A stretch of DNA of 64,000 nucleotides from Vicinamibacterales bacterium (GCA_963850725.1 CAWKMQ010000018.1:191128-255127); one strand, 5' to 3'; shown: positions 3,268 through 62,357, counted from the first letter of the stretch. Notes: a model not told the origin generated them from the letters alone. Numbers and translations: made by a program.

Positions 3268-4369
3268 CTATCTTTTGATCTTCTGATCTTCTGTAAGAGG
3301 GCCAAGCGTCGCGACGTACAGATCGAAATCATTACGCTCGTCCGTTGGACCGGTGGGATGGCGCGAGGAGAACGCGATCACCGAGCCGGTGGCGTCGATC
3401 GACGGACCGACGCTGGGCTCGATCCATGCCCCGTCGGGATCGCCGCTGACGCGCACCATCGTGCCGTCCTGCCGATCGTAGACGAACACATCCCACAGCA
3501 GATTGAAGTCCTCGCCCGCCACCAGATCGCTGGCTTCCGATTGAAAGACGACGAATCGGCCATTGGAGGAGATGGCAGGGTTGGCGCTCGCACCATTGGC
3601 CAGTCCACGTCTCACGCTTTTCGTAATGATCCGGACGGCGCCCGTGTGAAGGTCGGCGACATGGATGTGCGAAAGCCCGCCACCATCCGGGCCGACAAAC
3701 GCCAGCGCGCCCGCGTCGCCGCTGATCGACGGCGCCCAGCCGATGCCGATGCGTCGTGTGGTGCCCAGGAGCATATCGCGCACCAACACCTGTGAACTGG
3801 GACGGCGACGCGCGTCGAAGGGCGGTCTCGCCGAAAACGCGACGTACCGTCCGTCTGCGCTCGGACTCGGGCTGAAGCTCCACGTCAACGCTGTGTCGAC
3901 GCCCGGGCCCATCGATGATGCTGACGCGATGGGGGACACCGCCGCGCGGATCGATCGAAAAAATATCGTGCTCCGACGTAAAAAACACGACGCCGTTTCC
4001 GGCGACGGACGGCTGCCGTCCTTTGCCAAGGGTCCGATCGACATTGTCGACCGTGTCGCGCCACAGGATCGTGCCGTCGGCCTGAAAGACAAGGTAGCGG
4101 CCGTCTGCGCTGATGTCAGGATCCTGGCAGTCGATTGGTCCGCACGCCGGGCTCTCGAAGGTGACCTTCTGCCGAGCGCGATCGAGCACGTAGACATCAA
4201 TGGTGTGGTCGGTGTCGGCATCGGCAAGCGGCGCATGCGTGAGAAACGCGACGTAACGGCCGTCCGCGCTGACCGAAGCCGACGGGCGATCGAGCCCTGC
4301 CCGGTTGGCATCTTTCTGATCGATGGTGAGCATCCCGCTCATGATCAGCGCGGCGACCTGTGCCTTCAT
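3268..4369 (-). pseudogene. TolB-like / PD40 (WD40-like) beta-propeller repeat protein, one frame change as assembled
   Basis: The N-terminal ~155 codons are in track ORF 3332..4369 and the rest in ORF 3268..4311. The join is near 3900 at a GGGCCCGGG run. Repeated motifs SADGRYVAF, SADGRYLVF, SSNGRFVVF and ATGSVIAF are present. Confidence 0.75.
3271..3293. repeat. Word array, reverse complement of the AGAAGATCAG word
   Basis: tcttttgatcttctgatcttctg is inverted relative to 2935-2960. It encodes the last codons (..EDQKIKR) of the minus-strand gene ending at 3268. Confidence 0.7.
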
Positions 4370-9708: not shown

Positions 9709-11883
9709 ATGAGGAGGTTGCATCTGGCGTGGGTATTCGTCGCCGTCGTTGGCATCGTGCTGCTCTTCGCCTCTCGCAGTCCGATGAGCGCCGCAGGCAG
9801 GGCGCGGCCATTCCCGTGGACAACGACGATCTCGGCGGCACGGTGACCGGGCCGAAGGGGCCCGAAGCCGGCGTCTGGGTCATCGCCGAGACCACCGACC
9901 TGCCGACGAAGTTCGCGAAGATCGTCGTCACCGACGATCGCGGGCGGTATCTCATTCCCGATCATGCCCAAGGCGAACTACACCGTGTGGGTGCGGGGCT
10001 ACGGGCTGGTCGATTCGCCGAAAACACAGTCGGTGCCCGGCAAGGTCGTGGACCTGAAAGCGGTGGCCGCGCCGAACCCTCACGCCGCCGCGCAGTACTA
10101 CCCGGCCGGCTACTGGCTGTCGCTGATGAAGGTGCCCGACAAGAGCGAGTTCCCGGGCACTGGCGAGACCGGCAACGGCATCGCGACAGGCATGCGGAAT
10201 CAGGCGATGTGGCTGCGCAGCCTGAAGTCGGGTGGCTGCACGGCGTGCCACGCGTTCGGCAACAAGGCGATGCGGGAGATTCCGAAAGAGCTCGGCACGT
10301 TCCCGAACTCGGCAGCGGCGTGGGATCGGCGCGTTCAGTCCGGCCAGGCGGGCGGTGCGGATGAGCAACGGCCTCAACGCGTTCGGCCGGCGCCGCGTGC
10401 TCGAGATGTTCGCCGACTGGACCGATCGCATCGCCGCGGGCGAAGTGCCTCCGGCGCCGCCGCGTCCGCGCGGCATCGAGCGCAACATCGTCATCACGCA
10501 GTGGGACTGGGCCGATCCGAAGTCGTACCTGCACGATTCGGTGTCGACCGATCGCCGCAATCCGCGGCTGAATCCGTACGGCCCGCTCTATGGCTCGCTC
10601 GAGCTGAGCTCCGACTACGTGCCGGTGCTGGATCCGGTGAAGACACACGGTCAGCCGGGTTCCGCTGACCGTGCGCGATCCGAACACGCCGCCGACCAGC
10701 CCGAAGATGCCGGCGAGCCTCGCCGTACTGGGGCGACGAGGTGATCTGGACGAGCAAGAACAACGTGCACAACCCGATGCTCGACGAGAAGAGACCGGCT
10801 GTGGCTGACCTCGGCCGTGACGCCGTTCGACAATCCGGCGTTCTGCAAGGCAGGGGTCGACGCATCCGTCGGCGAAGGCGTTTCCGCTCGACAGCGCGAG
10901 CCGGCATCTGCAGATGTACGACCCGCAGACCAAGAAGCTGACGCACATCAGAACGTGCTACGCCACGCATCACCTGATGTTTGCCGAAGACGCGAATCGC
11001 ACGCTGTGGACGAGCGGCGGCGGTCCCGTGATCGGCTGGCTCAACACGAAGATGTTCGACGAGACCGGCGACGAGGTGGCGTCGCAGGGATGGACGCCGC
11101 TGATCGTCGACACCAACGGCAACGGCCGGCGCGACGCCTGGACCGAGCCGAACCAGCCGGCCGATCCGACGAAGGATCGCCGCATCAACTCGCCGTTCTA
11201 CGCGGCGTCGCCCGCCGCCGACGGATCGATCTGGGGCACGGCGCTCGGTTTCCCTGGCGCGATCATGCGCGTCGTGCCGGGATCGAATCCTTCCGAGACA
11301 GCGCTGACCGAAATCTACGAGCTGCCGGCGGTCACCGATCCGAAGGCCGACGTGCGCGGCTTCTCGCCGCGCGGCGGCGACGTCGATCGCAACGGCGTGT
11401 TCTGGGCGGCGCTCTCCAGCGGGCACATGGCGAGCTTCGATCGCCGCAAGTGCAAGGCGCCGCTGAACGGTCCGAAAGCCACCGGCCAGCACTGCCCGGA
11501 AGGCTGGACGTTCTATGCCGAGCCGCTGCCGCAGTTCAAGGGCGTCACCGACGACGGCAGCGTCGAAGGGCAGCTATTACACCTGGGTCGATCAGTTCAA
11601 CACGTCGGGTCTCGGCGCGAACACGCCGATCAACACCGGCAACGCGTCCGAGGGCTGCTCGCGCTGAACAACGGCAACTGGGTCGTGATGCGCGTGCCGT
11701 ATCCGCTGGGCTTCTACACCAAGTGGATGGACGGACGCATCGACGATCGAGAAGGCCGGATGGAAGGGGCGAGGGCTCTGGGCGACCATCAGCACGCGCG
11801 CGCCGTTCCACATGGAAACAGGGAAGGGCACGACGAGCAAGGTGATGCACTTCCAGGTCCGGCCCGATCCGCTCGCGAAGTGA
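9709..11883 (+). pseudogene. Exported CarboxypepD_reg-like / monohaem cytochrome c / beta-propeller-like protein, about 10 frame changes
   Basis: RBS AGGAGG with ATG at 9709. Pieces lie in track ORFs 9729, 9964, 10232, 10741, 10817, 10914 and in unlisted frames. Segment VWVIAETTDLPTKFAKIVVTDDRGRYLIPD..YTVWVRGYG. CxxCH (CTACH) at 10237-10251. Reconstructed end ..MHFQVRPDPLAK, stop at 11881-11883. Confidence 0.7.
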
Positions 11884-11893
11884 GGCGGATTGA

Positions 11894-11958
11894 ACAGGAG
11901 ACTAGGAGATCAGGAGAATCTTTTCGAAAAGAATTCTCTGAGTCTCCTGATCTCTTGT
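11894..11958. repeat. Word-array hairpin (GGAGAYYAGG word), possible terminator
   Basis: acaggagactaggagatcaggagaatcttttc | gaaaagaattctctgagtctcctgatctcttgt. The central palindrome tcttttcgaaaaga is perfect. About 33 positions pair with a few mismatches. It sits 11 nt after the stop at 11883. The same word occurs at 62205..62333. Confidence 0.7.
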
Positions 11959-11964
11959 AAAACG

Positions 11965-12486
11965 ATGATCGACGATTCGGGACGCTCGGATCGAGGATGC
12001 CGAAGACATGGTGGGCATCCTGAATCCGATCATCGCGGCGAGGATCTACACGGCCCTCGATACGCCAGTTTTCCGTCGACGCAGCAGCGCGAGTTCATCC
12101 GCACGCTTTCCGCGACGCGGGATTTTTCTCGTCGCGGTCGACGCCGGCTCGAACCGCGTCGTCGGCCTGCAGGACGTCTCGCCGTTCGGCGATTTCACGC
12201 CCGCCTTCGATCATGTCGGCGTCATCGGCACGTTCGTCGACCTGAGCCGCCGCCGCCAGGGCATCGCCTCGCGGCTTGTTCGCGGCGACCTTCGATGCCG
12301 CGCCGAAGAAGGGCTACGAGAAGTTCTTCACCTACGTGCGGGCCGACAACACGGCGGCGCTCCAGACCTACCTCCGCCAGGGCTTCCGCGTCGTCGGGAC
12401 AGGCCGAGCGCCACGCCAAAATCGACGGCCGGTATATCGACGAGATCATGATCGAAAAGTTCCTCCAGGCGCCTGGACAGGGCTGA
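11965..12486 (+). pseudogene. GNAT family N-acetyltransferase, at least 4 frame changes
   Basis: Reconstructed from ORFs 11890 (frame 1), 12008 (frame 2) and 12276 (frame 3): ..MVGILNPIIAARIYTALDTP..VAVDAGSNRVVGLQDVSPFG..RRRQGIASRL..KKGYEKFFTYVRADNTAALQTYLRQGFRVVGT..IDGRYIDEIMIEKFL. Confidence 0.7.
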
Positions 12487-19035: not shown

Positions 19036-20951
19036 ATGAACGTTCGAACCATGCTTCCGCTCGCCCTGGCGATTGCGGTTCGATAGCCGTGACACCGCAC
19101 ATCACCACGCTCCGCGGCCAGAGCGGGCCCAGGCTCTACACGACCTGGAGCCAGCCGGGCGGCAGCATCGAAGGGGCGCAGTACTCCGCGCTCAAGCAGA
19201 TCGACAAGACGAACGTTCATCAGCTCGAGCTGCAATGGTTCTTTCCCGCGCCTGGTCCCATCGGCCGGTTCGCCTTCAGCCCGCTCGTCGTCGACAACGT
19301 GATGTACGTCGTCGGCAAGGACAATGCGGTCTTCGCCCTCGATGCCGTGACGGGGAAGGAAATCTGGCGGTTCGATACCGAAGGGACGCCGACCAACCGC
19401 GGCTTCAACTACTGGGAAAACACCGATCGTTCCGATCGCCGCCTCATCTTCGCGTCGCGCAGCTACCTTCAGGAGATCGATGCGCGAACCGGGAAGCCGA
19501 TCGCGAGCTTTGGCGCCAACGGCCTCGTGAACCTGCGCGAGGGCCTCGGCCGCACCCCGCTGCCCACGGGTGGCGCGCAATCGGGATCGCCCGGTCAGGT
19601 CTGGGGCAATCTGCTCGTGCTCGGTTCGGCTCCCGGAGAGGGCTACAACTCACCGCCCGGCGACATCCGGGCGTTCGACGTGCAGACCGGCAAGCTGGTG
19701 TGGACGTTCCACACGATTCCCCGGCCCGGCGAGTTCGGCTACGACACGTGGCCGCCCGACGCGTGGAAGACGGCCGGCGGCGCCAACACCTGGGCCGAGT
19801 TCGCGATCGACGAGAAACGCGGCATCGGGTATTTCCCAACGGGATCGCCGACGTTCGATCTGTGGGGCGGCGATCGAAAAGGCAACAACCTCTTCGGCAA
19901 CACGCTCCTCGCCCTCGATCTGCGCACGGGCAAGCGTCTCTGGCACTATCAAGCGCTTCATCACGATCTGTGGGACTACGATCTGGTGACCGGACCGAAG
20001 CTGCTGACGGTGAAGCTGAACGGGAAGCCGGTGGACATCGTCGCGCAGGCGACGAAGTACGGCTTGCTGTTCGTGTTCGATCGCGTCACCGGCAAGCCGA
20101 TCTGGCCCATCGAAGAACGGCCCGTCCCGCAGAGCGACGTGCCCGGCGAGCAGTCGTCGCCGACCCAGCCCTTTCCGACCCGACCCGCGCCGTTCGCACG
20201 GCTGAAGTTCACCGAGGCGGATGTGAACCCGTACCTCGACGCCGACGAGCGTCAGCGGATTCTCGAGATCGTGCGCACGTCGCGCAATGAAGGGATCTTC
20301 ACGCCGCTCAGCATCACGCGGCGTCAGATTTCAGTGCCCGGCGAGCTCGGCGGCGCCAACTGGGGCGGGGCTGCCGCGGATCCCGAAACCGGGATGCTGT
20401 ACGTGCGCTCGGCCGATCAGCCCGCCCTGCACGAGCCGATGACGCTCGTGGAAGACAGCGAAGCCGTCAGCCGGATGGCGCCGCAGCCACGCTACACGGG
20501 GCGTCTCGGATCGATGTTCTTCGCGTCGAACGGCCTGAACGCGATGAGCCCGCCCTGGGCGCAGATTACCGCGTACGATTTGAACAGCGGCGCGATCAAG
20601 TGGCAGGCGCCGTTCGGCGTCGTGCCGTCGCTCGCCGCGAAAGGCATCACGAACACCGGGAACAACTATCGCGCGCACAGGAACGGACCTGTCGTCACGG
20701 CGGGCGGATTGATTTTCATCGCGCACTTCGCCGATCGCACCGTTCGCGCCTACGACAAAGACAACGGGAAAATTCTCTGGGAGAAGAAGATGCCCCCCAA
20801 CTTCGCGGGCATCCCCTCCGTGTATGAGGTCAACGGACGGCAGTTCGTCGCCTTCTACGGCAGCAGCTTCGAGAGCCCGGCCGACGGCAACATCGCATGG
20901 GAAGGCGGGGAGCCCGGGTCGCAAGGGTATTACGTGTTTGCACTGGCGTAG
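19036..20951 (+). pseudogene. PQQ-dependent dehydrogenase (glucose/quinate/shikimate-type 8-bladed propeller), soluble periplasmic; one indel after the signal peptide
   Basis: The body is intact in track ORF 19002..20951 (..YSALKQIDKTNVHQLELQWFF..VVDNVMYVVGKDNAVFALDAVTGKEIWRF..). The signal peptide MNVRTMLPLALAIAV starts at ATG 19036 in frame 1, and the join is near 19080. Confidence 0.85.
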
Positions 20952-21062
20952 AAAGTAGAAAGTAGAAAAGTAGAAAGTGAAAAGTAGGAAAGTAAGCGAA
21001 GCAGGCGCCCGATGACTTTCAAACTTCCTTTTTACTTTTCCCTTTTCACTTTCTACTTTCTC
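20949..21062. repeat. Word-array hairpin (GTAGAAAG word) spanning the stop of one gene and the start of the next
   Basis: The 5' arm is tagaaagtagaaagtagaaaagtagaaagtgaaaagtaggaaagtaag. The loop contains ATG 21012. The 3' arm acttcctttttacttttcccttttcactttctactttctc includes a 17-nt exact complement of the 5' arm. The same word occurs at 55497..55613. Confidence 0.8.
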
Positions 21063-22257
21063 TGCGCTCCTGCCGCCAGCGCGCAATCCACCGACTGGCC
21101 CCAGTTCCGCGGTCCGGACGGGCAGGGGCACTCGACGGAAACCAACCTGCCGCTCGAGTGGAGCGAGACGAAGAACGTCGCCTGGAAGACCGCCATCCGC
21201 GGCCGCGGATGGTCGTCGCCGGTCGTGGCCGACGGCCGTGTCTGGGTGACGACGTCTGTCGAGCAGGCGCGCAGTGCGTCGCTGCGCGCGCTGGCGTTCG
21301 ATGTCGAAAGCGGCCGCGAGATCGTCAACGTCGAGGTGTTCCGGCTGTCGAATGCCACGCTGAAGAATCCCAAGAACAGCAACGCGTCTCCCACTCCGAT
21401 CGTCGAAGGCAACCGCGTCTACCTCCACTTCGGCGCCGATGGCACCGCGGCGATCGATGCCGCGACGGGAGCGGTCGTCTGGAAGGCGCAGTTTCCCTAT
21501 GAGTCGCAGCATGGCGCCGGCGGGTCGCCGGCGCTGTACAAGGATTTGCTGATTTTCAGCGGCGACGGTCACTACGAAGCCTGGGTCGTCGCGCTCGACA
21601 AGAACACCGGCAAGGTGCGGTGGAAAACAGAGCGCCGGAAGCCCTTCGCCCAGGCCTATACGACGCCGCTGGTGATTTCCGTCGGCGGGCGCGATCAGGT
21701 CGTCAGCGTCGGCGCGTTCCGGGCGGAGGCCTACAATCCCGAGACCGGCAAGGAAATCTGGTACGTGCGCTACGAGGACGGATTTTCGAATGTGCCCACG
21801 GCCGGTGTTCGGGCACGGCCTCGTGTACATCACGACCGGATTTTTCGAGCCCGCGGTCCTGGCGGTCCGGGCCGATGGAACGGGCGACGTCACGTCGACG
21901 CACAAGGCCTGGTCGATCTCGCGCGGTGCCCCCTTCACACCCTCGCCCATTCTCGTCGGCGACGAGCTGTACATCGTCAGCGATCTCGGCATCCTCTCGT
22001 GCGTCGATGCGAAGACGGGCAAGGTGCTCTGGCAGCAACGGCTGGGGGGCAATCATTCGGCGTCACCGATTTTCGCCGACGGCCGTCTTTACTTTCTCAG
22101 TGAAGAGGGCGTGGCCACGGTGATTGCGCCGGGAAAGACGTTCCAGAAGCTTGCCGTCAACGAGCTCGACGGCGCCACGCTCGCCTCGATGGCCGTCGCG
22201 CGCGGCTCCTTCTTCATCCGCAGCCTCACGCATCTCTACAGAATCACAGCGGGATAA
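21012..22257 (+). pseudogene. PQQ-like (BamB-like) beta-propeller repeat protein, exported; one frame change
   Basis: ORF 21012.. (frame 3: ..STDWPQFRGPDGQGHS..VAWKTAIRGRGWSSPVVADGRVWV..) joins ORF 21790..22257 (frame 1: ..PVFGHGLVYITTGF..DAKTGKVLWQQRLGG..) near 21790. Confidence 0.8.
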
Positions 22258-25566: not shown

Positions 25567-26081
25567 TCGAGCGGCACTACCTCGACGATTGCCTTGTCCA
25601 GCTGCGCAAGCTCAAGACGCAGGTGGACAAGGCCATCGCGCAGATCGACGATCGGCAGTTCTTCGCCGCGCTCGACCCCGAGGCCAACAGCATCGCGCTC
25701 CTGATGAAGCACATCTCGGGCAATATCCGTTCGCGCTCGACCGACTTCCTGACGACCGACGGCGAAAAGCCCAATCGGAATCGAGACGGCGAATTCGAGC
25801 TCGGCGGCGAGGACACGCGCGCGGCCATCCAGTCGCGATGGGAGGAGAGCTGGCGGCTGTTGTTCGAGACGATTGGCTCGCTTCAGCCCGGGGATCTCGA
25901 GAAGACCGTCACGATTCGGGGAGAAGCCCACACGGTCGTGCAGGCGTTGAACCGCCAGGTGTCGCACTATTCAGCCCACGTCGGCCAGATCGTGCTGCTC
26001 GCCAAGCACTTCGCGGGGGCGCGCTGGCAGACGCTGAGCATACCGCGGAGGAAAGCACCGGTTCAGGGTTCCGGGTGCTAG
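25563..26081 (+). CDS. DUF1572 / DinB-like family protein
   Basis: TTG start overlaps the ferritin stop. Sequence ..LMKHISGNIRSRSTDFLTTDGEKPNRNRDGEF..VSHYSAHVGQIVLLAKHF. The last codons (..VQGSGC) run into the GGTTCYRG word array. Confidence 0.6.
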   Translation: MIERHYLDDCLVQLRKLKTQVDKAIAQIDDRQFFAALDPEANSIALLMKHISGNIRSRSTDFLTTDGEKPNRNRDGEFELGGEDTRAAIQSRWEESWRLLFETIGSLQPGDLEKTVTIRGEAHTVVQALNRQVSHYSAHVGQIVLLAKHFAGARWQTLSIPRRKAPVQGSGC

Positions 26082-26236
26082 GTTCTAGGTTCCGGTTCTG
26101 AACCTGCTAGCCTGGGCAGATTCACGTATCTGGTTCAGGCGGACCGCGTGAACGTCCGGCTAAAGCCGGACACTACGTATCCACGGCACCGAACCTGGAA
26201 CCGGAACCCAGAACCTAGCACCCAGAACCCAGAACC
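26061..26236. repeat. Word-array long hairpin (GGTTCYRG word) with a REP element in its loop
   Basis: Segment 26066-26098 is complementary to 26198-26230 (33 nt, 2 mismatches by hand alignment). The 99-nt loop carries the REP copy at 26124..26179. The hairpin fills the gap between the convergent stops at 26081 and 26240. Confidence 0.8.
26124..26179. repeat. REP-like element, doublet with a degenerate first hairpin
   Basis: acgtatctggttcaggcggaccgcgtgaacgtccggctaaagccggacactacgta aligns to the reverse complement of the doublet at 45971..46030. The track ORF 26148.. (MNVRLKPDTTY..) is its translation artefact. Confidence 0.8.
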
Positions 26237-26239
26237 GCT

Positions 26240-27967: not shown

Positions 27968-28354
27968 TCATTTTCGGGTTCGCTTCTTGGCGATTCCGTC
28001 GAGATGCGCTTTCCGAATCTCCGTCTTTCGATCTTTCTCCTTATTTCTACATGCGCGACAGAGGACTGCTCGTGTGTTGATGTTTCCCTTGGCGACTTCG
28101 TACCACCATTTTTGCCTGTCAGCGGGCCAAACCTCTTCTTTACCGCAAGCACGACAGGTGATCGCTTTGTCTACGTAGAACCGTGGCAGAGGATCGTACG
28201 TATTGTTGTGGGCCAGTTGCGCAGGGTCGGCAGGAACCGCTCCACGCGGCAGTACGGCATCTGAATCACGAGTATCGATATGCCCCAGTTCTTTTGCTCG
28301 CTTCAGGGCGGCGTCTTTCTGACGTTCTTGTTTTCTCTTTTTGGACGCCATCAA
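27968..28354 (-). CDS. Basic zinc-ribbon protein (CxxC...CxxC), low-GC islet gene 2
   Basis: Intact 128-aa ORF. Motif YVDKAITCRACGKEEVWPADRQKWWYEVAKGNINTRAVLCRACR with K/R-rich termini. The local G+C is clearly below the flanks. Confidence 0.6.
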   Translation of the reverse strand: MMASKKRKQERQKDAALKRAKELGHIDTRDSDAVLPRGAVPADPAQLAHNNTYDPLPRFYVDKAITCRACGKEEVWPADRQKWWYEVAKGNINTRAVLCRACRNKEKDRKTEIRKAHLDGIAKKRTRK

Positions 28355-28761
28355 CCGTTGTAAAAATAAACCACCATCATGTTGGTTTTCTTGTTGATTC
28401 CTACCGCCCTATAGGAGTCGGAGTTCCCGCTATATCCCTCACTCAACTCGTCCTCCGCAAATCGGCAATACGTTTTTCCTCCGGTGGCCACACCATGAAA
28501 AGCGTTTAAATTTGAAACCAGATTCCATTTTGCAACCAGTCTTCTCTTCAGCTCATCATCTACCGGTGAAATTTCCCAGCACCGCCACGGATCGTTTCCC
28601 CAATTCCCGTCCATCTTGACAATCTCCACGTTGGAGGGAAGTGGTATTCGCATGAATGTTTCAAAGTCTGATGATGGTGAGTTACATCCAGTCAGTAACG
28701 AAGATCCTGATAGGAACAAAAGAAGTATCCGTGATAATCCAAGCCCAGAGCGCATGCTCAC
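28351..28761 (-). CDS. Lipoprotein of unknown function, low-GC islet gene 1
   Basis: Intact 136-aa ORF with lipobox LLTGC after a signal peptide. Its stop overlaps the start of the downstream zinc-ribbon gene (ATGA at 28351-28354). Confidence 0.6.
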   Translation of the reverse strand: MSMRSGLGLSRILLLFLSGSSLLTGCNSPSSDFETFMRIPLPSNVEIVKMDGNWGNDPWRCWEISPVDDELKRRLVAKWNLVSNLNAFHGVATGGKTYCRFAEDELSEGYSGNSDSYRAVGINKKTNMMVVYFYNG

Positions 28762-28851
28762 CTCGCCTTGTGTGGGCCATTCTGCGCGCGCGCTCCGTGC
28801 CTAATCAAGCGGCTAAATCCGCCTCATTCTGTCGTAAGCTAGCCGTCTCAT

Positions 28852-30402
28852 ATGTCGCGCATTCTTCTCGGCAAGGGCGACGAGCCCGTCTATCTCCAGG
28901 CACAATACGGTAACCGTCACGGCCTGATTGCCGGTGCCACCGGCACCGGGAAGACCGTCTCGCTGATGGTCATGGCCGAGGGGTTTTCGCGCCTCGGCGT
29001 GCCGGTGTTCATGCCCGACATCAAGGGCGACGTCGCGGGACTCGCCATGCCGGGCAAGGGCGGCGACAAGATTCAACAGCGAGCCACGCAGGTCGGCGTC
29101 GAAGCCTACGCCCCCGAGGCGAATCCGGTCGTGTTGTGGGATCTGTACGGGACTTCCGGGCATCCGGTCCGGACGACCGTCAGCGAGCTGGGGCCGACGT
29201 TGCTCGGCCGGATTCTGGAACTGAGCCCGGCACAGGTCGGCGCGCTCGAGATTGCGTTCAAGCTGGCGGACGACCGCGGATTGCTGTTGCTCGATCTCGA
29301 CGATCTGCGTGCGCTGCTCACCTTCGTTGCTGACAACCGCAAAGAGATCTCCTCGAGCTACGGACTCGTGAGCACCCAATCGGTGGCCGCCATCCAGCGG
29401 TCGCTGCTGTCGCTCGAGCGCGAGGGGGCGACGTCGCTCTTCGGCGAGCCGGCGCTGGAGCTGGTCGATCTGTTTCGCACCGATCTGAGCGGCCGCGGCA
29501 TCATCAATGTCCTCGCCGCCGATCAGCTGATCCTCAAGCCGCGCCTGTTCTCGAGCTTCCTGCTGTGGCTGCTGTCGGAGCTGTTCGAGAATCTTCCCGA
29601 AGTCGGCGATCTCGAGAAGCCCAAGCTGGTGTTCATCTTCGACGAGGCGCACCTGCTCTTCGACGACGCGCCCGAAGCGCTGCGCGATCGCGTGGAGCAG
29701 GTGGTGCGCATCATCCGATCGAAGGGCGTCGGCGTGTATTTCTGCTCGCAGTTTCCCGACGATGTGCCCGACGAAATTCTCGGACAGCTGGGCAACCGCG
29801 TGCAGCACGCGCTGCGGGCGTTCACGCCGCGCGACCAGAAGGCGGTGCGCACGGCGGCCGAGACATTCGTGCCGAATCCGAAGCTGGACGTGGCCCAGGT
29901 GATTTCCACGCTTGGTGTGGGCGAGGCGCTCGTGTCGACGCTGCAGGACAACGGCGTGCCGATGCCGGTGCAGCGCACGATGATGGCGCCGCCGCGAAGC
30001 CGCATCGGGGCGATTACCGCCGAAGAGCGCGCGACGGTGCGCGCGCGCAGTCCCATCGGGCCGAAGTACGACAAGGCGGTCAACCGTGAGTCGGCCTATG
30101 AGATGCTGAAAGCCGGAATGGGTGCGTCAGGTGCGGGAGGCCTGTCGCGCCGAAGCTCGTCGGAACCGGATCGAGCGAAGCCGGATTCGACAGGTGCGGG
30201 AGGTGCGTCAGGTGCGGGGGGTGCGACAGCTACGTCGGGTGTGGGCGGGGCGATAAACGATTTTCTCTGGGGCACCAAGCGGCGTCAGGGGATGGTGGAG
30301 ACGATGGCGAAGCAGACTGCGCGCACAGTGGGCGGCCAACTGGGCAGGCAGATCCTTCGCGGCATGTTCGGTGGCATTCTCGGGGGACGACAGTCGCGCT
30401 GA
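28852..30402 (+). CDS. HerA-like P-loop ATPase, DUF853 (YjgR-like) family
   Basis: Intact 516-aa ORF. Walker A GATGTGKT and Walker B-like LVFIFDEAHLLF. Gly-rich C-terminal tail ..GAGGASGAGGATATSGVGG..ILGGRQSR. The antisense ORF 28813..29808 is a shadow. Confidence 0.8.
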   Translation: MSRILLGKGDEPVYLQAQYGNRHGLIAGATGTGKTVSLMVMAEGFSRLGVPVFMPDIKGDVAGLAMPGKGGDKIQQRATQVGVEAYAPEANPVVLWDLYGTSGHPVRTTVSELGPTLLGRILELSPAQVGALEIAFKLADDRGLLLLDLDDLRALLTFVADNRKEISSSYGLVSTQSVAAIQRSLLSLEREGATSLFGEPALELVDLFRTDLSGRGIINVLAADQLILKPRLFSSFLLWLLSELFENLPEVGDLEKPKLVFIFDEAHLLFDDAPEALRDRVEQVVRIIRSKGVGVYFCSQFPDDVPDEILGQLGNRVQHALRAFTPRDQKAVRTAAETFVPNPKLDVAQVISTLGVGEALVSTLQDNGVPMPVQRTMMAPPRSRIGAITAEERATVRARSPIGPKYDKAVNRESAYEMLKAGMGASGAGGLSRRSSSEPDRAKPDSTGAGGASGAGGATATSGVGGAINDFLWGTKRRQGMVETMAKQTARTVGGQLGRQILRGMFGGILGGRQSR

Positions 30403-45970: not shown

Positions 45971-46030
45971 TACGTAGTGTCCGGCTTTAGCCGGACTTCA
46001 CGCGGTCCGCCTGAAGGCGGACACTACGTA
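45971..46030. repeat. REP-like element, complete doublet (two hairpins plus a closing inverted repeat)
   Basis: tacgtagt-gtccggc-ttta-gccggac-ttcacgcg-gtccgcc-tgaa-ggcggac-actacgta. It fills 60 of the 72 bp between the convergent stops at 45970 and 46043. Track ORF 45977.. (MSGFSRTSRGPPEGGHYV..) is a translation artefact. Confidence 0.85.
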
Positions 46031-48998: not shown

Positions 48999-49050
48999 TA
49001 GAATCTGGAATCTAAAACTAAAATCTGAAATGAAACTGAAGACTGAATGG
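48999..49050. repeat. Word array, cores GAATCT/AAAACT/GAAACT
   Basis: tagaatctggaatctaaaactaaaatctgaaatgaaactgaagactgaatgg. It is related to the array at 61514..61570. Confidence 0.7.
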
Positions 49051-54987: not shown

Positions 54988-55004
54988 AGCCGGACACTAG
55001 TACA
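54978..55004. repeat. REP-like element, single hairpin; the gene's stop codon lies in the loop
   Basis: gtccggctgaagccggac + actagtaca. The TGA at 54985-54987, in the hairpin loop, is the stop of the DUF5671-like gene. Confidence 0.8.
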
Positions 55005-55100
55005 TGCAGCACTAAGCAGGACGTCGCCACAAACATCGTCGAGCGACCAACGGTCGCGAGATACAGGTCGCGGGGGTGGGGCCCCGCGACAAACTGAATA

Positions 55101-55496
55101 ATGCGAACGGTCATTGTCGTCATCGCCGTCCTCGTGGTGCTGGGTGCGCTTGGCGGCGGGTTCTATCTCATCGGGCCTCCCGCGGAGGAACGCGCGCGGC
55201 AATTCGACGCCCGGCGGGAAGCCGACCTGCAGCGGCTGCGTCTGGCGGCCGATCTGTACTGGACCCGCAACCGGCGTCTGCCCGCGTCGCTCGACGAGCT
55301 TCACAAGGAAGCCGGCACGAACATCTTTGCCCGCGATCCGCAGTCCGGCGCGGCGTACGGCTACGCGGTGAAAGCCGGCGACGCGTACGAGCTGTGCGCC
55401 GAATTCGCCCGCGCATCCGAGCTGCGCGGTGACTTCTGGTCGCATGGAGAGGGAAGGCAGTGTTTTCAGATAACGGCAAAGGTGCTGACACCGTAA
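55101..55496 (+). CDS. Membrane-anchored hypothetical protein
   Basis: Intact 131-aa ORF with an N-terminal TM helix (VIVVIAVLVVLGALGGGFYLI). The segment LPASLDEL..RDPQSGAAYGYAV..YELCAEF loosely resembles pseudopilin-type globular domains (weak). Confidence 0.45.
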   Translation: MRTVIVVIAVLVVLGALGGGFYLIGPPAEERARQFDARREADLQRLRLAADLYWTRNRRLPASLDELHKEAGTNIFARDPQSGAAYGYAVKAGDAYELCAEFARASELRGDFWSHGEGRQCFQITAKVLTP

Positions 55497-55613
55497 GTAA
55501 AAAGTAGAAAGTAGAAAGTAAGGAATAAGGAAGCTAATGTTGATGCGACTGAGGTTGCCGTCTCGCTATTCCTTTTTACTTTTCACTTTTCACTTTCCAC
55601 TTTTTCCTTTCCA
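55497..55613. repeat. Word-array hairpin (GTAGAAAG word) spanning a stop, the next start codon and a signal-peptide region
   Basis: The 5' arm is gtaaaaagtagaaagtagaaagtaaggaataaggaag. The loop contains ATG 55537. The 3' arm is tcctttttacttttcacttttcactttccactttttcctttccac. The architecture matches 20949..21062. Confidence 0.8.
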
Positions 55614-57188
55614 CTGTTCCTCCTCCGCCCAGCCCCCATTCTCCGTCGTCGAAGCCACCATTGCGGACATGCAGGCCGCGATGCAGCAGAAACGCATTAC
55701 CTCGCGCGGCATCGTCCAGCAGTACCTCGACCGCATCGCGAAGTACGAGGATCGCCTGAACGCCATCATCACGCTCAATCCCCGCGCGCTCGAAGAGGCC
55801 GACCGGCTCGATCGAGAGCGGGCGCAGGGCCGGATCCGCGGCCCGCTGCACGGCATTCCGATCGCGCTCAAGGACAACATTCACACGACCGACATGCCCA
55901 CGACCGGCGGCGCGCTCGCGTTCAAGGGGTTCGTGCCGCCGTACGAGGCCACGCTGACGAAGCAGCTTCGCGAGGCGGGCGCGATCATCATCGCGAAGAC
56001 GAACATGACCGAGCTGGCCAACTGGATTGCCGCCGGCATGCCGGGCAACTACAACGGCCTTGCCGGCTACGGCTTCAATCCCTACGATCCACGGCCCGAT
56101 CCGCGCGAGGGGACCAGACGACGGCAGGCCCGCGCTGACGGCCGGCCGGATCGAGCTCGGGCGCCGGCACGGCGGCCAATCTGTGGGCGGCGAATGTCGG
56201 CACCGAAACGTCCGGATCGATTCTCTCGCCCGCCAAACCAGACGATGATTGTGGGGATCAAGCCGACGGTGGGGCGGATCAGCCGGTACGGAATCATCCC
56301 GATTACCGCGGATCAGGACACCGCCGGGCCGATGGCGCGAACGGTGGCGGATGCGGCGATGCTGCTTCGGCGTGCTCGAAGGTGCGACGCCGGACCCGAA
56401 CGATGCGGCGACGCGGACGTGTCCACGAACGCCCAACGGTGACTACACGCGTCATCTGAACGCACGCGGACTGGAGGGCGCCCGTATCGGCATTCCGCGC
56501 GCGACGTTCGTCGATGAGGCCAGGCAAGGCGACGTCGTGCGCGAGGCCATCGCCATTCTCCGAAAGGCCGGGGCGGTCGATCGTCGATCCGGCCGACCTG
56601 CCCGAGCAACCGCCGCCGGTCTGCCGCGACGATACGGGCATCAGGGGCAAGGACGTCAATTGCTCGATCGTGTTCAAGTACGGCATGAAGCGCGACTTCA
56701 ACGCCTGGCTGGCCACGCTGGGTGCCGGCGCTCCGGTGAAAACGCTCGCGCAGCTGCGCGAGTGGAACCTCGCCCATCGCGCCGAAGGCGCCATCAAGTA
56801 CGGCCAGATCCAGCTCGACAACTCGGATGCGGTGGATCTCGAGGCCGATCGCGCGCGCTATCTTGCCGATCGGCAGAAGGATGTGCGCGTGACCGGCACG
56901 GATGGCATCGACGCGGTCTTCAAGCGCGAGCGGCTCGACGCGCTGCTGTTTGTCGGTTCGAGCGGATCGGCGTTTGCCGCCAAGCCCGGCTATCCGACCG
57001 TGATTGTGCCGTTCGCCTTCGTGCCGAACGCCCCCACGCCGCCGTTCCCGCCGGGCTTCGATGCCAAGCCGTCACCGCTCGGCATCAGTTTTACGGGTAC
57101 CGCGTGCAGCGAGCCGCGCTTGATCGAACTGGCCTATGCGTTCGAGCAGGCCACGAAGCGAAGAGTGGCGCCGGCAGAGTTTCCCTAG
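55537..57188 (+). pseudogene. Amidase (amidase-signature family), exported; at least 4 frame changes
   Basis: Sequence ..ATIADMQAAMQQKRITSRGIVQQYLDRIAKYE..LHGIPIALKDNIHT.. The signature GGSSSGAGTAANLWAANVGTETSGSILSPA is readable only in a third frame near 56150-56240. The C-terminal part is in ORF 56514..57188. Confidence 0.8.
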
Positions 57189-57197
57189 AGTCGTCTC

Positions 57198-57265
57198 AAC
57201 GCAAAGACGCGAAGACGCCAAGAATTCTGCTTTAATAAGATTCCTTGTCTTGGCGCCTTGGCGTT
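57198..57265. repeat. Imperfect word-array hairpin (AAGACGC / CCAAG words)
   Basis: cgcaaagacgcgaagacgccaagaattc ... gattccttgtcttggcgccttggcgtt lies 10 nt after the amidase stop. Confidence 0.5.
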
Positions 57266-57296
57266 AGATATCGAAACCCCGAGGACTGAGAGCCAC

Positions 57297-57707
57297 ATGG
57301 GCAGAACGGTGAGCGTTGAGATCGAGCAAGTGGGGCCGTCGACGGGGCAGGCGACGGCGCGGACGCATACGGTGTTCGTCGATCGGCCCACCGACAAAGG
57401 TGGCCACGATCGCGGACCGCTGGGTGGAGAATATTTGCTGGTGTCGCTGGGGGGCTGCTTTCTGAGCACGCTTCTGGCCGCCGTCAAGACGCGCGGCGCC
57501 GACGTCTCGAACGTGCGCGTGTCGGTGGCCGGCACCATCGGCGGCGTGCCCGAACGGTTCGAGTCGATGGCCGTGCGCGTCAATGCCACCTACAAAGACA
57601 AGGACGAAATGCGAAAGCTCCTGACGATTGCCGAGCGCGGTTGCCTCGTGACCAACACGCTCAGGGACGCCGTGGCGCTGTCACTCTATCTCGAGCCATC
57701 ACAGTGA
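57297..57707 (+). CDS. OsmC/Ohr family protein
   Basis: ATG 57297 (RBS GAGGA) within track ORF 57258..57707. Sequence ..DRPTDKGGHDRGPLGGEYLLVSLGGCFLSTL..IAERGCLVTNTL shows the two conserved Cys. Confidence 0.8.
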   Translation: MGRTVSVEIEQVGPSTGQATARTHTVFVDRPTDKGGHDRGPLGGEYLLVSLGGCFLSTLLAAVKTRGADVSNVRVSVAGTIGGVPERFESMAVRVNATYKDKDEMRKLLTIAERGCLVTNTLRDAVALSLYLEPSQ

Positions 57708-58488: not shown

Positions 58489-58971
58489 ATGAACAAGTTA
58501 GGGCAATTGACCATCGCCGAAGCGTGCATCGATGACGCCCCCATCCTGCTTGCCCTGATGCAGGCGGCCTTTGAAGAGTACGAAGGCATACTCACCCCGC
58601 CTTCCGGCGCACACAACGAGACGGTCGATACCGTCCGCGCCCGGCTGGCGGCCGGTGCCGCCGCGCTGGCGCGCGTGGGCGAAGATGCGGCCGGCTTTGC
58701 GTTCTACGAGCCCGCCGGCGATCTCGTTTATCTGGGACGGCTGTCGGTGCTGCCGCGATTCCGCAACAACGGCATCGGCGGCGCGCTCGTCGCGTACGTC
58801 GAGCGCCGCGCGAAAGAGCAGGGCGCCGCCGGCATGCGCCTCGGCGTGCGGCTGCAACTGCCGCATCTCGTCGCGCGCTACGAACGGCTGGGCTACCGCA
58901 TCACCCGGTACATGACCCATCGCGGCTACGATCAACCCACGTGGGTGTATATGGAGAAACGGTGGGCTTGA
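58489..58971 (+). CDS. GNAT family N-acetyltransferase
   Basis: Intact 160-aa ORF. Sequence ..YLGRLSVLPRFRNNGIGGALVAYVERRAKEQG..YERLGY. Confidence 0.85.
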   Translation: MNKLGQLTIAEACIDDAPILLALMQAAFEEYEGILTPPSGAHNETVDTVRARLAAGAAALARVGEDAAGFAFYEPAGDLVYLGRLSVLPRFRNNGIGGALVAYVERRAKEQGAAGMRLGVRLQLPHLVARYERLGYRITRYMTHRGYDQPTWVYMEKRWA

Positions 58972-58972
58972 A

Positions 58973-59045
58973 GAATTCGCAGATTCGCAGATTCGTAGAT
59001 TGGAAGATTGATTGCCGGATTGCGGATTGGCGATTGCCCGGTTTG
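58973..59045. repeat. Word array, core (C/G)AGATT / GGATTG (at least 8 units)
   Basis: gaattcgcagattcgcagattcgtagattggaagattgattgccggattgcggattggcgattgcccgg starts 2 nt after the stop at 58971. Confidence 0.8.
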
Positions 59046-59059
59046 GAGTGCTGTTCTTA

Positions 59060-59105
59060 CAGAAGACCAGAAGATCAGAAGAGGCCTTGATCTTCTGACC
59101 TTCTG
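59060..59105. repeat. Word-array hairpin (AGAAGATCAG word)
   Basis: cagaagaccagaagatc (59060-59076) pairs with gatcttctgaccttctg (59089-59105) at 15 of 17 positions, with a 12-nt loop. Confidence 0.75.
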
Positions 59106-59165
59106 ATCTTTTGTTTCATAGTCAGCATCCGGCGCGTTGGCGAACCGTGCGATTTTCTGAGCAGA

Positions 59166-59317
59166 CACGAAGACGACGAACCGCCGAACCCACGAACCCG
59201 CCGAACCCAACGAACCCGACGAACCCAGGAACCCGACGAACCCACGAACCCCACGAACCCGACGAACCCGTTAACGAACTTAACGAACTTGACGAACCCA
59301 CGAACCTGACTAACCCG
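59166..59317. repeat. Word array, consensus GAACCCRAC (about 15 units of 8-9 bp)
   Basis: ..cgaaccgccgaacccacgaacccgccgaacccaacgaacccgacgaacccaggaacccgacgaacccacgaaccccacgaacccgacgaacccgttaacgaacttaacgaacttgacgaacccacgaacctgactaaccc. It ends 19 nt before ATG 59336. Confidence 0.85.
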
Positions 59318-60284: not shown

Positions 60285-61522
60285 ATGAGACGCGTGGCAT
60301 CCGCCCTCGCCGCCGTCGTGCTGGTGGCTGCCATCGCGATGCACGCGCAGTCCCCGTCATCGTCTGCCAACCTTCCGTTGTTCCTGTACGCCGCGGTGGG
60401 TCCCGAGCTCTCGACGTATGCGGTGCACGCCGCGGATGGAGTCGCTGCGAAAAACCTCGAGCGCGACGTTGCCATTTGCCGTGCAGTACGTGTGGCCGCA
60501 CCCCTCGACGAAATTTCTGTATGTGGCGTGGAGCAACGGCATGCAGGGCGATCGCCACGGCATAAACGCGTACCGTATCGACCCCGTCACGGGCGCGCTG
60601 TCGCCGCACGGTGCGCCGATCGAAATCCGGCATCGGCCCGTGCACCTGACGCTCGATGCGAACGCGACCCACGTCCTCGTGGCCTACAACAATCCCAGCA
60701 GCTTGAGCGTGCACGCGCTGAACGCGGACGCCACGCTGGGACGCCGAGGTGAAGCAGCCCGCGCCGCTCGACCAGGGCATCTACGCGCACCAGATCCGTG
60801 TGCATCCGTCGAACACGATGGTCGTGCTGGTGACGCGCGGCAATGGCCCCACGGCAACACGGCCCGAAGACCCCGGCGCACTGAAGGTCTACGGCTACAA
60901 GAACGGGGTCCTGACCAATCGGCAGTCGATCGCGCCCAACGGCGGCTTCGGCTTTCAGTCGCGCCATCTGGATTTCCATCCAACACTGCCGCTCATGTAT
61001 CTCAACCTCGAGCGCCAGAACCAGCTTCAGGTCTACCGCGTCAAGGGCGACGCCATCGATCCCCAGGCCGTGTTCACCCGCAACACGCTCGATCACCCGG
61101 AGACGAGCAAGCCGGCGCAGATGACAGGTGCCATCCACATCCATCCGAACGGCCGGGTCGTCTACCTGAGCAATCGTGCGAGCGGTACTCAGGTCGTCGA
61201 CGGGAAGACGGTCTGGGAGGGGGGCGAGAACACCATCGGCGTCTATGCGATCGATCAGAAGACAGGCGAGCCCACGCGCCTTCAGAACATCGACAGCGGT
61301 GGGATGCACGCGCGCACGTTTGCGCTCGACGCGGACGCCGGCCTGCTCGTGGCGGCCAATCAGAATGCGGTGACCAAAGCGGACGGTACGCGCGTGTCCG
61401 CGTCGCTGGCCGTCTTTCGCATCGGGAGCACCGGGACGCTTACGTTTCTGCGGAAATACGACGTCGAGACGGGGCGGGGCGACACGCTCATGTGGACGGG
61501 GTTGGTGCGAATCCGAAACTAA
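60285..61522 (+). pseudogene. Lactonase-type 7-bladed beta-propeller protein (6-phosphogluconolactonase-like), exported; two frame changes
   Basis: Signal peptide in ORF 60285 (frame 3), then ORF 60418 (frame 1: ..PHPSTKFLYVAWSNG..INAYRIDPVTGAL..), then ORF 60749..61522 (frame 2: ..IHIHPNGRVVYLSNRASG..GVYAIDQKTGEPT..). Confidence 0.6.
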
Positions 61523-61570
61523 AATCTAGAAACTAGAAACTAGAACTGAAAACTGACAACTGAAAACTGG
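61514..61570. repeat. Word array, cores GAAACT / AGAAACT / GAAAACT
   Basis: gaaactaaaatctagaaactagaaactagaactgaaaactgacaactgaaaactgg spans the stop at 61520-61522 and ends 10 nt before ATG 61580. Confidence 0.75.
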
Positions 61571-62204: not shown

Positions 62205-62268
62205 CAAGAGATTAGGAGACTAAGAGAATTTCTTTTCAAAGAATTCTCCTGATCTCTAGTCTCCTGTT
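62205..62268. repeat. Word-array hairpin (GGAGAYYAGG word)
   Basis: caagagattaggagactaagagaatttcttttc | aaagaattctcctgatctctagtctcctgtt. It is related to 11894..11958 and lies 11 nt after the stop at 62194. Confidence 0.7.
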
Positions 62269-62283
62269 TCCGTTTAAACAAAA

Positions 62284-62328
62284 GATCAGAAGATCAGAAG
62301 GAAATTTTTTCCTCCTAATCTCCTGATC
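62284..62328. repeat. Hairpin pairing an AGAAGATCAG arm with a GGAGATCAGG-type arm
   Basis: gatcagaagatcagaaggaaa (62284-62304) pairs with tttcctcctaatctcctgatc (62308-62328) at 18 of 21 positions, with a 3-nt loop. Confidence 0.7.
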
Positions 62329-62357
62329 TCCTGTTCGAATTTTGTTTTGAACGTTTT

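Follow-up and report, generated by a model that had tools for sequence, protein, structure and literature searches.

In a 64,000-nucleotide stretch of DNA from a Vicinamibacterales bacterium (the window), the gene for an amidase-signature enzyme (PF01425) follows an ORF that has no Pfam match. The entire spacer between the two genes is occupied by a purine-rich array of 7-nt units, which is the 5′ arm of an inverted repeat. The 3′ arm, a pyrimidine-rich heptamer array, lies within the amidase ORF, and the start codon of the amidase is located in the loop between the two arms (Table 1). This element is designated locus 2, and a sister element at the start of another gene of the window is designated locus 1. 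The original prediction for locus 2 had described a 5′ arm beginning 1 nt after the stop codon at 55494-55496, ATG 55537 within a loop of ~36 nt, and a 3′ arm read as SFLLFTFHFPLFPFH followed by CSSSA/Q, with the slash indicating the predicted cleavage site. When checked against the sequence, all of its positions held: GTAAAAAG begins at 55497, directly past the upstream TAA, the inner arms are 36 nt apart, and the translation agrees.

Table 1. Positions and repeat words of the elements discussed (positions are those of the window unless a contig is named; L numbers denote loci in related DNA)
Feature	Position	Strand	Details
Upstream ORF, 131 aa	55101..55496	+	N-terminal transmembrane segment; stop TAA 55494-55496 abuts 5′ arm
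5′ arm of locus 2, purine-rich heptamer array	55495..55533	+	AAGTAAA AAGTAGA AAGTAGA AAGTAAG GAATAAGGAAG
Loop with start codon and n-region codons (MLMRLRLPSR)	55534..55565	+	ATG 55537 or ATG 55543
3′ arm of locus 2, pyrimidine-rich heptamer array	55566..55619	+	CTATTCC TTTTTAC TTTTCAC TTTTCAC TTTCCAC TTTTTCC TTTCCAC
Signal-peptide coding region (predicted), 31 residues	55537..55629	+	MLMRLRLPSRYSFLLFTFHFPLFPFHCSSSA / QPPFSVVEATI
Mature amidase (PF01425)	55630..57188	+	split across three frames by at least 4 frameshifts in the assembly
Second repeat-armed hairpin, just past amidase stop	57199..57262	+	(ACGCAAAG)x3 ... CTTGTCTTGGCGCCTTGGCGT; period 8; -27.4 kcal/mol, z = -2.85
Hairpin in L003 orthologous to 57199-57262	L003 11570-11652		word ACGCAGAG
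Locus 1 sister element, same word class	20948..21064	+	between PQQ dehydrogenase and PQQ-like beta-propeller protein
L163 (independent JGI contig, 90% identical amidase)			5′ GGAAAAT / GGAAGAA; 33-nt arms at 88%, -59.6 to -63.5 kcal/mol
L002, L166			5′ AACGAAA / AGCGAAA; 3′ TTTTCG units
L164			5′ ACGAAGA; weak
L104			5′ CCACAAAGA; 3′ TCTTCGTGG
Word class A			AAGTAGA / TTTCTAC; window loci 1 and 2, L167, L168
Word class B			AACGAAA / TTTTCG; L170, L002, L166
Word class C			GGAAAAT / CCATTTT; L163
Word class D			CCACAAAGA / TCTTCGTGG; L104

The 5′ arm of locus 2 contains 3.7 copies of a 7-nt period with the word AAGTAGA at 94% matches (TRF; 55495-55520), and its 3′ end is a Shine-Dalgarno-like AGGAAG (55528-55533). 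The 3′ arm contains 6.9 copies of the same period with the word CTTTTCA at 75% matches (TRF; 55572-55619). It is complementary to the 5′ arm, covers codons 10-27 of the amidase ORF, and is translated as YSFLLFTFHFPLFPFH. A repeat finder placed an outer pair of arms at 55495-55528 / 55576-55609 (34 nt, 76% complementary, 47 nt apart) and an inner pair at 55520-55532 / 55569-55581 (13 nt, 85%, 36 nt apart); depending on the register, complementarity ranges from 76 to 88% and spacing from 36 to 72 nt. Compared to a G+C content of ~64% for the window, that of 55495-55619 is ~24%. The predicted RNA fold is a single long interrupted helix of -33.3 kcal/mol with the AUG in the loop region, where it is expected to be unpaired with a probability of 0.70.

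The amidase ORF opens at ATG 55537, and an in-frame TAA (55519-55521) closes the frame upstream. ATG 55543, which lies 9 nt past AGGAAG, is an equally possible start. A start downstream of the element, which had been raised as an objection to the original prediction, is at odds with the sequence: there is no in-frame start between the 3′ arm and the conserved QPPFSVVEATI, and the next ATG would remove residues conserved in 120/120 orthologues. In many distant orthologues, a TAnAAT box points to a leaderless start; here such a start was rejected because no box of this kind is found 6-9 nt before ATG 55537.

As judged from its sequence, the 31-residue N-terminus has the three regions of a Sec (signal peptidase I) signal peptide and is a predicted export signal. 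Its n-region, MLMRLRLPSR, is positively charged (R4, R6, and R10). The Phe-rich h-region, FLLFTFHFPLF, includes His and Pro and has a Kyte-Doolittle mean of 1.81 over 11 residues, compared to 2.8-3.0 in orthologues. The cleavage site, assigned by the -3/-1 rule and by the position at which orthologue signal peptides end, places S-S-A/Q immediately before the conserved PPFSVVEATI, where the orthologue signal peptides also stop (e.g., ...VAQ/QPPFSVV). Nearly all of the 120 best amidase orthologues carry an N-terminal signal peptide of ordinary composition that ends just before (Q)(P)PFSVVEATI (e.g., MPTRFALIVLTFAALQLATVAQQPP and MSRVYAAAVAIVLFGLVMTGQQPP), and the amidase family is therefore probably exported. 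This comparison is in line with the exported N-terminus of the original prediction and answers the question posed with it, as the orthologues do carry signal peptides unrelated to the repeat. A T-rich 3′ arm encodes Phe, Leu, Ser, Thr, Tyr, His, and Pro in every frame, and may therefore have been co-opted as the core of a Sec signal peptide.

The amidase gene and the gene at locus 1 are both split by frameshifts in the assembly. Because the closest genomes are nanopore MAGs of Vicinamibacterales (MFD series), these frameshifts are most likely sequencing errors. As such frameshifts are typical of long-read errors, the homopolymer lengths within the arms are uncertain. Despite the frameshifts elsewhere, the frame is open from the ATG through the 3′ arm into QPPFSVVEATI, and the same architecture is present in the independent assemblies L163, L002, and L166.

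The repeat architecture at locus 2 was confirmed, and by three measures it exceeds chance. With at most one mismatch, GTAGAAAG occurs 29 times compared to 16.2 ± 4.1 expected (0/100 shuffles reach 29), and the excess sits in the two loci. The window contains 7 inverted repeats whose arms span ≥20 nt at ≥80%, compared to 0.2-0.27 in block shuffles that preserve local composition. A complementarity score comparing the 110 nt before the start with the reverse complement of the signal-peptide codons was computed at 155 orthologous amidase loci. Locus 2 of the window scored 34, whereas in 3000 trials mismatched pairs of loci gave 14.7 ± 2.7, reached 28 at most, and had their 99th percentile at 23. 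Taken by itself, locus 2 folds only modestly better than its shuffles (z = -2.1 for -33.3 kcal/mol; 8/200 shuffles equally good), and the fold of locus 1 reached -54.5 kcal/mol and z = -5.9.

Searches of known families returned little. Rfam 15 at the gathering threshold gave no matches in the whole window, and an E-value search of six orthologous loci returned only sub-threshold eukaryotic miRNA-precursor models, which are generic long hairpins. When a synthetic signal peptide of the repeat-encoded kind was used as a protein query, the only hits were 12 tiny hypothetical proteins. In the literature on heptamer and tandem repeats in Acidobacteria, Vicinamibacter, and Luteitalea, no description was found. 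Each arm is a tandem array of purines or of pyrimidines only and lacks self-complementarity; of the features of MITEs and REPINs, no flanking duplication was seen at either locus, nor was a terminal-repeat consensus or a conserved core. RNAalifold analysis of the four class-A hairpins showed pairs that are almost all invariant, with 1 compensatory pair of 24, which makes covariation uninformative, and the different word classes cannot be aligned column-wise since the arrays slip.

The original prediction regarded locus 2 as the second instance of the hairpin design of locus 1, and the two elements indeed align end to end with a score of 76, compared to 84 for locus 1 and its orthologue L167. 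At locus 1, the stop codon (TAG) of the PQQ dehydrogenase gene lies inside the first GTAGAAAG, ATG 21012 falls within the loop, and translation of the 3′ arm yields PFYFSLFTFYFL, part of the predicted signal peptide of the PQQ-like beta-propeller protein. These two copies within 64 kb have unrelated loops and 3′ arms that are identical at 38/41 nt but are read one base apart (W1, CCT TTT TAC; W2, TCC TTT TTA), the difference in reading frame that had been claimed for the two loci. With a 7-nt unit, any array gets read in all three frames. Since nearly identical arms are used in different frames, their likeness is at the nucleotide rather than the peptide level. From these alignments, copies within a genome appear to be no less similar to each other than orthologues are.

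Across the amidase family the hairpin is not conserved, yet it recurs in the closest clade with other words. Only 4 of the 155 loci exceeded the 99th percentile of the null (the window, L002, L104, and, marginally, L043). Among relatives of at least 80% amidase identity, the hairpin is present in the window, L163, L002, and L166 and weak in L164, whose cognate arm score of 20 is at background level; it is weak or absent in L001, L003, L004, L028, L083, and L165. In L163, a repeat tract of ~55 nt lies on each side with AGGAG...ATG within the loop, and variant units run in direct, not mirrored, order. The matching of the arms is word-specific: when 5′ regions were scored against signal-peptide regions in an 11 x 11 matrix, cognate or same-class pairs gave 25-61, compared to 10-20 (background) for cross-class pairs. 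The variable position of the unit, as read from the sequences, is U, C, or G in the 5′ arm and A, G, or C in the 3′ arm, which implies several joint changes of the two arms. The window, L002, and L001 all retain the inner stem GAATAA...TTATTC, with L001 having it in another reading frame.

A purine array right before the start, with little or no 3′ arm and an ordinary signal peptide, is found in L001, L165, L003, L004, L028, and L083, and the array of L003 uses the window's own word, AAAGTAGAAAGTAAAAAGTG. Either arm can be found alone, as in L003, L004, and L028 (5′ array only) and in L169 (expanded 3′ array only). The same upstream gene, with its stop codon directly followed by the purine array, precedes the amidase in L001, L004, L083, L163, and L165. 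The hairpin is present with two different upstream genes and thus tracks the amidase rather than its neighbor. Turnover of words and of arms is quick among relatives with 80-92% identical amidases. In L165 and L166, the mature part is not in frame with the start codon, and both loci come from error-prone assemblies. A heptamer array, (TTCTGCC)n, lies within the signal peptide of L031 without a 5′ arm.

At locus 1, an array-encoded signal peptide is present in ~95 of the 120 best orthologues (68-96% identity) and comes in two discrete forms, type 1 (M..(K/R)LTFYFLLFTFYFL...AQ, in which FTFYFLL corresponds to (ACTTTCT)x3) and type 2 (MSRRHAKRSRIALFVFPFSFFVF...AQ). The n-regions of both forms, which are not repeats, are conserved as well. 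A complementary 5′ arm was found in 4/5 of the locus 1 DNAs that were read. L167 and L168 (type 1) and L170 (type 2) occupy the same syntenic position as locus 1 and carry cognate 5′ arms, which are of the AAGTAGA type in L167 and L168 and of the AACGAAA type in L170. The upstream ORFs of L167 and L168 terminate within this arm. In L169, a different neighbor lies 4 nt upstream, leaving no room for a 5′ arm, and the 3′ array is expanded. The start codon is predicted to be unpaired with a probability of 0.90-0.98 in W1, L167, and L168. One form does not arise by inversion or frame-shifted reading of the other, as L168 and L170 differ in both arms and loops.

The distribution of the two forms is almost uncorrelated with the phylogeny of the mature protein as reconstructed from the sequences. 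Below 95% identity, 0.49-0.56 of pairs are of the same type, compared to 0.50 expected at random; at 95% identity or more, the fraction is 0.72 (13/18). P0161 (type 1) and P0201 (type 2) have mature parts that are 97.9% identical. On a neighbor-joining tree of 93 sequences, 26 type changes are required, compared to 31.3 ± 2.5 for shuffled labels. As the form is nearly independent of the phylogeny, the cassette of 5′ arm, loop, and signal peptide may have been exchanged often, or both forms may have been maintained together. In the genome of L003/L167, class A is found at both loci. A single word per genome holds for the window and for L003/L167 but fails for L028, whose amidase 5′ array (AAGTGAA) does not match its locus 1 signal peptide, IVLFLFPFPFFL, which implies CTTTTCC. 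A broader proposal is that Vicinamibacterales carry a class of exchangeable "start cassettes" before exported-protein genes, each consisting of a hairpin with the start codon in its loop and the signal peptide in its 3′ arm. The arms would stay complementary as the word changes, copies would be homogenized within each genome, and the forms at the PQQ-propeller gene would have been swapped at least 26 times among the 93 sequences. We regard this proposal as speculative and somewhat doubtful. If true, start cassettes would represent a new switch, acting post-transcriptionally or at the population level, whose nucleotides double as regulatory RNA helix and export signal. The two-form pattern at locus 1 makes cassette exchange a concrete, testable claim.

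To explain the element at the amidase start, we tentatively favor, with somewhat less than even confidence, a cis-acting mRNA hairpin of simple-sequence repeats that tunes the expression of an exported protein and whose pyrimidine arm was co-opted as a signal peptide. The long imperfect hairpin of 7-nt repeats would act in cis on a transcript of the upstream gene and the amidase. The purine array of the spacer would pair with the inverted pyrimidine array of the amidase coding region, leaving the start and the ~10 initial codons in the loop, and the resulting A-U-rich helix of 25-45 bp would set the yield of the exported protein from the read-through transcript. The helix could tie up the Shine-Dalgarno-like sequence and early codons, it could be a double-stranded substrate for RNase III-type processing, or ribosomes completing the upstream ORF at or within the 5′ arm could open it. 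Because the upstream ORF ends in the arm (L167 and L168) or at the arm (the window and L163), a terminating ribosome would melt the outer helix. The T-rich arm might be a passenger accommodated by the signal peptide, or it might be the origin of that peptide. A promoter of the amidase's own inside the element would produce an mRNA without the 5′ arm. A promoter and terminator consensus scan of 55000-57600 gave no site at the element. The cis-acting hairpin is favored because the arms stay complementary through changes of word, because conservation at the nucleotide level is independent of frame, because the element starts at the upstream stop, and because the hmw1A repeat of Haemophilus influenzae provides a precedent. 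Also in its favor are the retention of the array-encoded signal peptide and of complementary 5′ arms at locus 1 and the high probability of an unpaired start codon there. What the sequences themselves show is the anatomy, the reading of the 3′ arm as an export signal, the recurrence in relatives, and the word-specific match of the arms; a role of the pairing in the RNA, and its effect, are what we infer. Counted against this reading are its sporadic occurrence in the amidase family, the persistence of single arms, the weak helix at locus 2, and the lack of a G-U bias on the sense strand. The asymmetry of G-U versus A-C pairs was mixed and uninformative, with 5 loci favoring the sense strand (locus 1, L168, L166, L083, and, by 0.2 kcal/mol, L167) and 6 the antisense strand, among them locus 2 (fold of -35.4 antisense vs. 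-31.5 sense), L002, L104, L170, and L163.

The main rival explanation, possible though on the whole rather unlikely, is that the element serves no dedicated function and is tolerated as a by-product of repeat dynamics. Slippage combined with intra-strand template switching or arm-to-arm conversion would yield arrays and inverted copies in intergenic DNA, and where the purine strand lies upstream of an exported-protein gene, the inverted T-rich copy would spread into a permissive signal-peptide core. Such dynamics would account for the dozens of arrays of period 7-9 and the 7 long inverted repeats of the window (~0.2 expected), for the concentration of period-7 arrays in some acidobacterial loci, for the fast turnover of words and arms among 80-92% identical amidases, for the lower hydrophobicity of the repeat-encoded signal peptide and its His and Pro, and for the absence of a sense-strand G-U bias. 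The (TTCTGCC)n array without a 5′ arm in L031 and the direct order of variant units in L163 point in the same direction. However, neutral arrays should diverge, and the four word classes retain cognate arms. Furthermore, ~95/120 locus 1 orthologues retain an array-encoded signal peptide in two discrete forms that include non-repeat n-regions, and in 1.72 Mb of related DNA start-straddling hairpins are found at two gene families only, not at signal peptides generally. A terminator, attenuator, or 3′-end stabilizer of the upstream gene, with the overlap of its 3′ arm and the next gene due to chance, is an improbable explanation. The 5′ arm does begin at the upstream stop codon, the 3′ arm is U-rich, and other repeat-armed hairpins lie directly past stop codons, including some between convergent genes and two with a G-U bias on the transcribed strand. 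Compared to an intrinsic terminator, however, the element lacks a G+C-rich core stem (arm GC, ~0.24) and has a loop of 36-65 nt rather than 3-8 nt, which contains a start codon. The consensus scan detected nothing terminator-like at the element, termination past the 3′ arm would truncate the amidase mRNA, and the hairpin goes with the amidase under two different upstream genes.

A DNA-level contingency locus, in which gain or loss of units in the signal-peptide codons switches the gene as in the opa genes of Neisseria, is quite improbable. The 7-nt unit within signal-peptide codons, the described opa mechanism (PMC3960869), the in-frame expansions of 21 nt (7 residues) in orthologues (P0222/L169, LTFYFLLFTFYFLLFTFYPLLFTFYL, and P0124), and the out-of-frame start codons of L165 and L166 would suit such a switch. 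The arrays are nevertheless short and imperfect (75% matches), whereas phase-variable tracts are as a rule perfect. The out-of-frame cases stem from long-read assemblies that are prone to errors and have frameshifts outside the repeats as well, and the complementary 5′ arm would be left unexplained. We consider it very improbable that the arms mark an operator or regulon as inverted arrays of sites for a protein that binds DNA or RNA and co-evolves with the word. Sharing of one word class and near-identical 3′ arms by two unrelated genes of the window, of class A by both loci of the L003/L167 genome, and of class B by both gene families in other assemblies would fit this idea. Against it stand the mismatch between AAGTGAA and CTTTTCC in L028 and the 7-bp period, which sets successive sites on different faces of the duplex, and a candidate factor was not found.

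Individual parts of this arrangement are known separately from other systems: a repeat-built 5′ hairpin (hmw), a translated pyrimidine repeat (opa), pre-start heptamers (TAACTGA), and in-frame palindromes (Rickettsia). The (ATCTTTC)n repeat in the 5′-UTR of H. influenzae hmw1A forms a long hairpin that is cut by RNase III and controls expression (PMC12721329). Like the element described here, for which the hairpin is predicted, hmw1A and hmw2A have a heptamer repeat upstream of an exported-protein gene as one arm of a long imperfect hairpin, an opposite arm of complementary purine/pyrimidine composition, a similar length (122 nt compared to ~120 nt), and mismatches and bulges. However, the hmw hairpin lies wholly in the 5′-UTR, at least 54 nt before the ATG, whereas here the start is in the loop and the 3′ arm is translated. 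The hmw repeat is also perfect, with at least 11 copies, and phase-variable, compared to 4-7 imperfect copies here, and the orientation of the pyrimidine arm is reversed relative to hmw. In Neisseria opa genes, CTCTT repeats that encode the leader peptide switch frame at a rate of ~1e-3 per generation (PMC3960869). Both cases involve a pyrimidine-rich repeat in signal-peptide codons, with a unit that is not a multiple of three and is hydrophobic in all frames. The opa repeat is perfect and frame-switching but has no complementary upstream arm; the element here has such an arm, its units are degenerate, and its orthologues differ in length only by in-frame steps of 21 nt.

TAACTGA and other heptamer direct repeats are found just upstream of starts in Beggiatoaceae, Cyanobacteria (STRR), and Bacteroidetes (PMC4679880). 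They resemble the arrays here in lying in intergenic spacers a few nucleotides from the start codon. Arrays of the TAACTGA type, however, use a single word, have no inverted partner, and are untranslated, compared to the many words and the coding partner arm seen here. Among dispersed elements, Correia elements are hairpins in Neisseria mRNAs that are cut by RNase III, Rickettsia palindromic elements insert in frame and are translated with their host genes, and REP/REPIN doublets are dispersed hairpin-forming palindromic repeats in which each REP is itself a palindrome. The element may share with these the dispersal of hairpin repeats by or in genes, and it shares one arm that is readable as protein and copies that are at least as alike within a genome as between orthologous positions. 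Unlike in them, the arms are non-palindromic tandem arrays of variable length, and no conserved core or target-site duplication was seen. What appears to be new is a start codon in a hairpin loop with the 3′ arm as signal peptide, the turnover of words, and the presence of two exchangeable forms.

If the pairing is functional, the same nucleotides would both make up one arm of a regulatory helix and encode the hydrophobic core of the export signal. Such an arrangement would be a natural example of signal-peptide permissiveness, in which export signals are born from, and constrained by, a non-coding repeat structure. It would also extend the sole worked-out RNA hairpin of heptamer repeats (hmw) to the abundant and little-studied soil Acidobacteriota and provide a handle on the unexplained heptamer arrays of several phyla. 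On the practical side, gene callers mis-start or split such genes, and predictors may miss signal peptides encoded by repeats.

The scan of 1.72 Mb of related DNA located start-straddling repeat hairpins only at the amidase and PQQ-propeller genes. Other candidates were mostly false ORFs, PadR-type operator palindromes, or hairpins upstream of the true start (L006), and a candidate in L079 actually lies between convergent genes. Repeats of other kinds are common in the window, where dozens of arrays of period 7-9 with many words lie in intergenic spacers; the period-7 arrays are concentrated in a subset of acidobacterial loci or lineages. Direct arrays of AAACTGA/AATCTGA lie just before the SD and ATG of exported proteins at 49002-49047 and 61515-61569, in the manner of the TAACTGA repeats (PMC4679880). 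Repeat hairpins with short loops are found after stop codons or between convergent genes at 11899-11979, 57199-57262, 59059-59114, 62283-62329, and 26059-26237, and look like terminators or 3′-end stabilizers; two post-stop repeat hairpins show a G-U bias on the transcribed strand. By its modeled fold, the hairpin past the amidase stop looks like a terminator. Similar hairpins adjacent to stops or between convergent genes occur in L003 (4250 and 11570), L028, L004, and L079 (14544).

The signal peptide and hairpin at the start of the PQQ-like beta-propeller gene (ATG 21012 in the window) and of its orthologues (proteins P0121-P0240; DNA loci L167, L168, and L170) occur in two discrete forms, type 1 (LTFYFLLFTFYF) and type 2 (MSRRHAKRSRIALFVFPFSFFVF). 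The form is almost uncorrelated with the phylogeny of the mature protein. On the tree of 93 taxa, 26 form changes are needed, compared with 31.3 ± 2.5 when the labels are shuffled, and the type can differ between proteins that are 96–98% identical. In the window, the GTAGAAAG element at this gene (20946-21066) aligns end to end with its sister at the start of the amidase (55492-55620), and the 3′ arms of the two show 38/41 identity while being read in different frames. Such likeness suggests that copies of the GTAGAAAG element within one genome have been homogenised.

Both genes are split by frameshifts in the window assembly, with at least four in the amidase (55537-57188) and at least one in the propeller gene (21012-22257). 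As the closest genomes are nanopore MAGs, these frameshifts most likely represent long-read homopolymer errors rather than pseudogenes.

A repeat-armed hairpin follows directly behind the amidase stop, and its word differs on both arms between the orthologous amidase locus L003 and the window (ACGCAAAG vs ACGCAGAG). At L003, the amidase 5′ array (9990-10010) encodes the C-terminal end of the acetyltransferase that precedes it (ending in KGKVESKK and the stop), and the acetyltransferase stop and amidase start overlap (GTGATG). Another amidase locus, L031, carries a heptamer array, (TTCTGCC/TTGTGCC)n, within the signal-peptide codons (MRAAARFCLLLCAFCLVTFALCFAVAC; approximately 9880-9960); the complementary 5′ arm is absent at this locus, and the gene looks leaderless. 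At many loci of distant orthologues, a TAnAAT box sits 6–9 nt 5′ of the ATG (e.g., L005, L006, L018, L053, L065, and L067), which suggests that other Acidobacteriota make leaderless amidase mRNAs. Just 5′ of this box, heptamer arrays are often present (L021, L072, and L082).

Repeat arrays and palindromes in the window and at L003
Feature	Location	Positions
Repeat-armed hairpin directly 3′ of amidase stop	window	57199-57262
Orthologous post-amidase hairpin	L003	11570-11652
AATCTGA/AAACTGA and GAAACTA/AACTGAA heptamer arrays	window	49002-49047 and 61515-61569
Further arrays/hairpins	window	11899-11979, 59059-59114, 62206-62333, 2936-3035 / 3270-3293, 58970-59038, 59174-59317
Pair of REP-like G+C-rich palindromes, GTAG/CTAC ends (TACGTAGTGTCCGGCTTTAGCCGGAC ... 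GTCCGCCTGAAGGCGGACACTACGTA)	window	45971-46030

The AATCTGA/AAACTGA and GAAACTA/AACTGAA arrays, which are similar to the TAACTGA repeats known from Beggiatoaceae and Cyanobacteria, stand immediately 5′ of the SD and ATG of two genes, one for a TAT-signal protein and one for a Sec-signal protein. Many more arrays of period 7–9 and short-loop repeat-armed hairpins are built from other words (AGGAGAT, CAGAAGAT, ATTCGCAG, and CGACGAACC x16), including an inverted pair, 2936-2954 / 3270-3293, spaced by approximately 300 nt.

The largest inverted repeat of the window (26059-26098 / 26198-26237; 40-nt arms, 93%) lies between convergent genes, consists of the heptamers GGTTCCG / GAACCCA, and holds a REP-like palindrome (GTCCGGCTAAAGCCGGACACTACGTA). 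The unit of the tabulated palindrome pair recurs at 26150-26182. Across approximately 1 kb (28001-29000), G+C falls to 0.52, with several AT-rich blocks.
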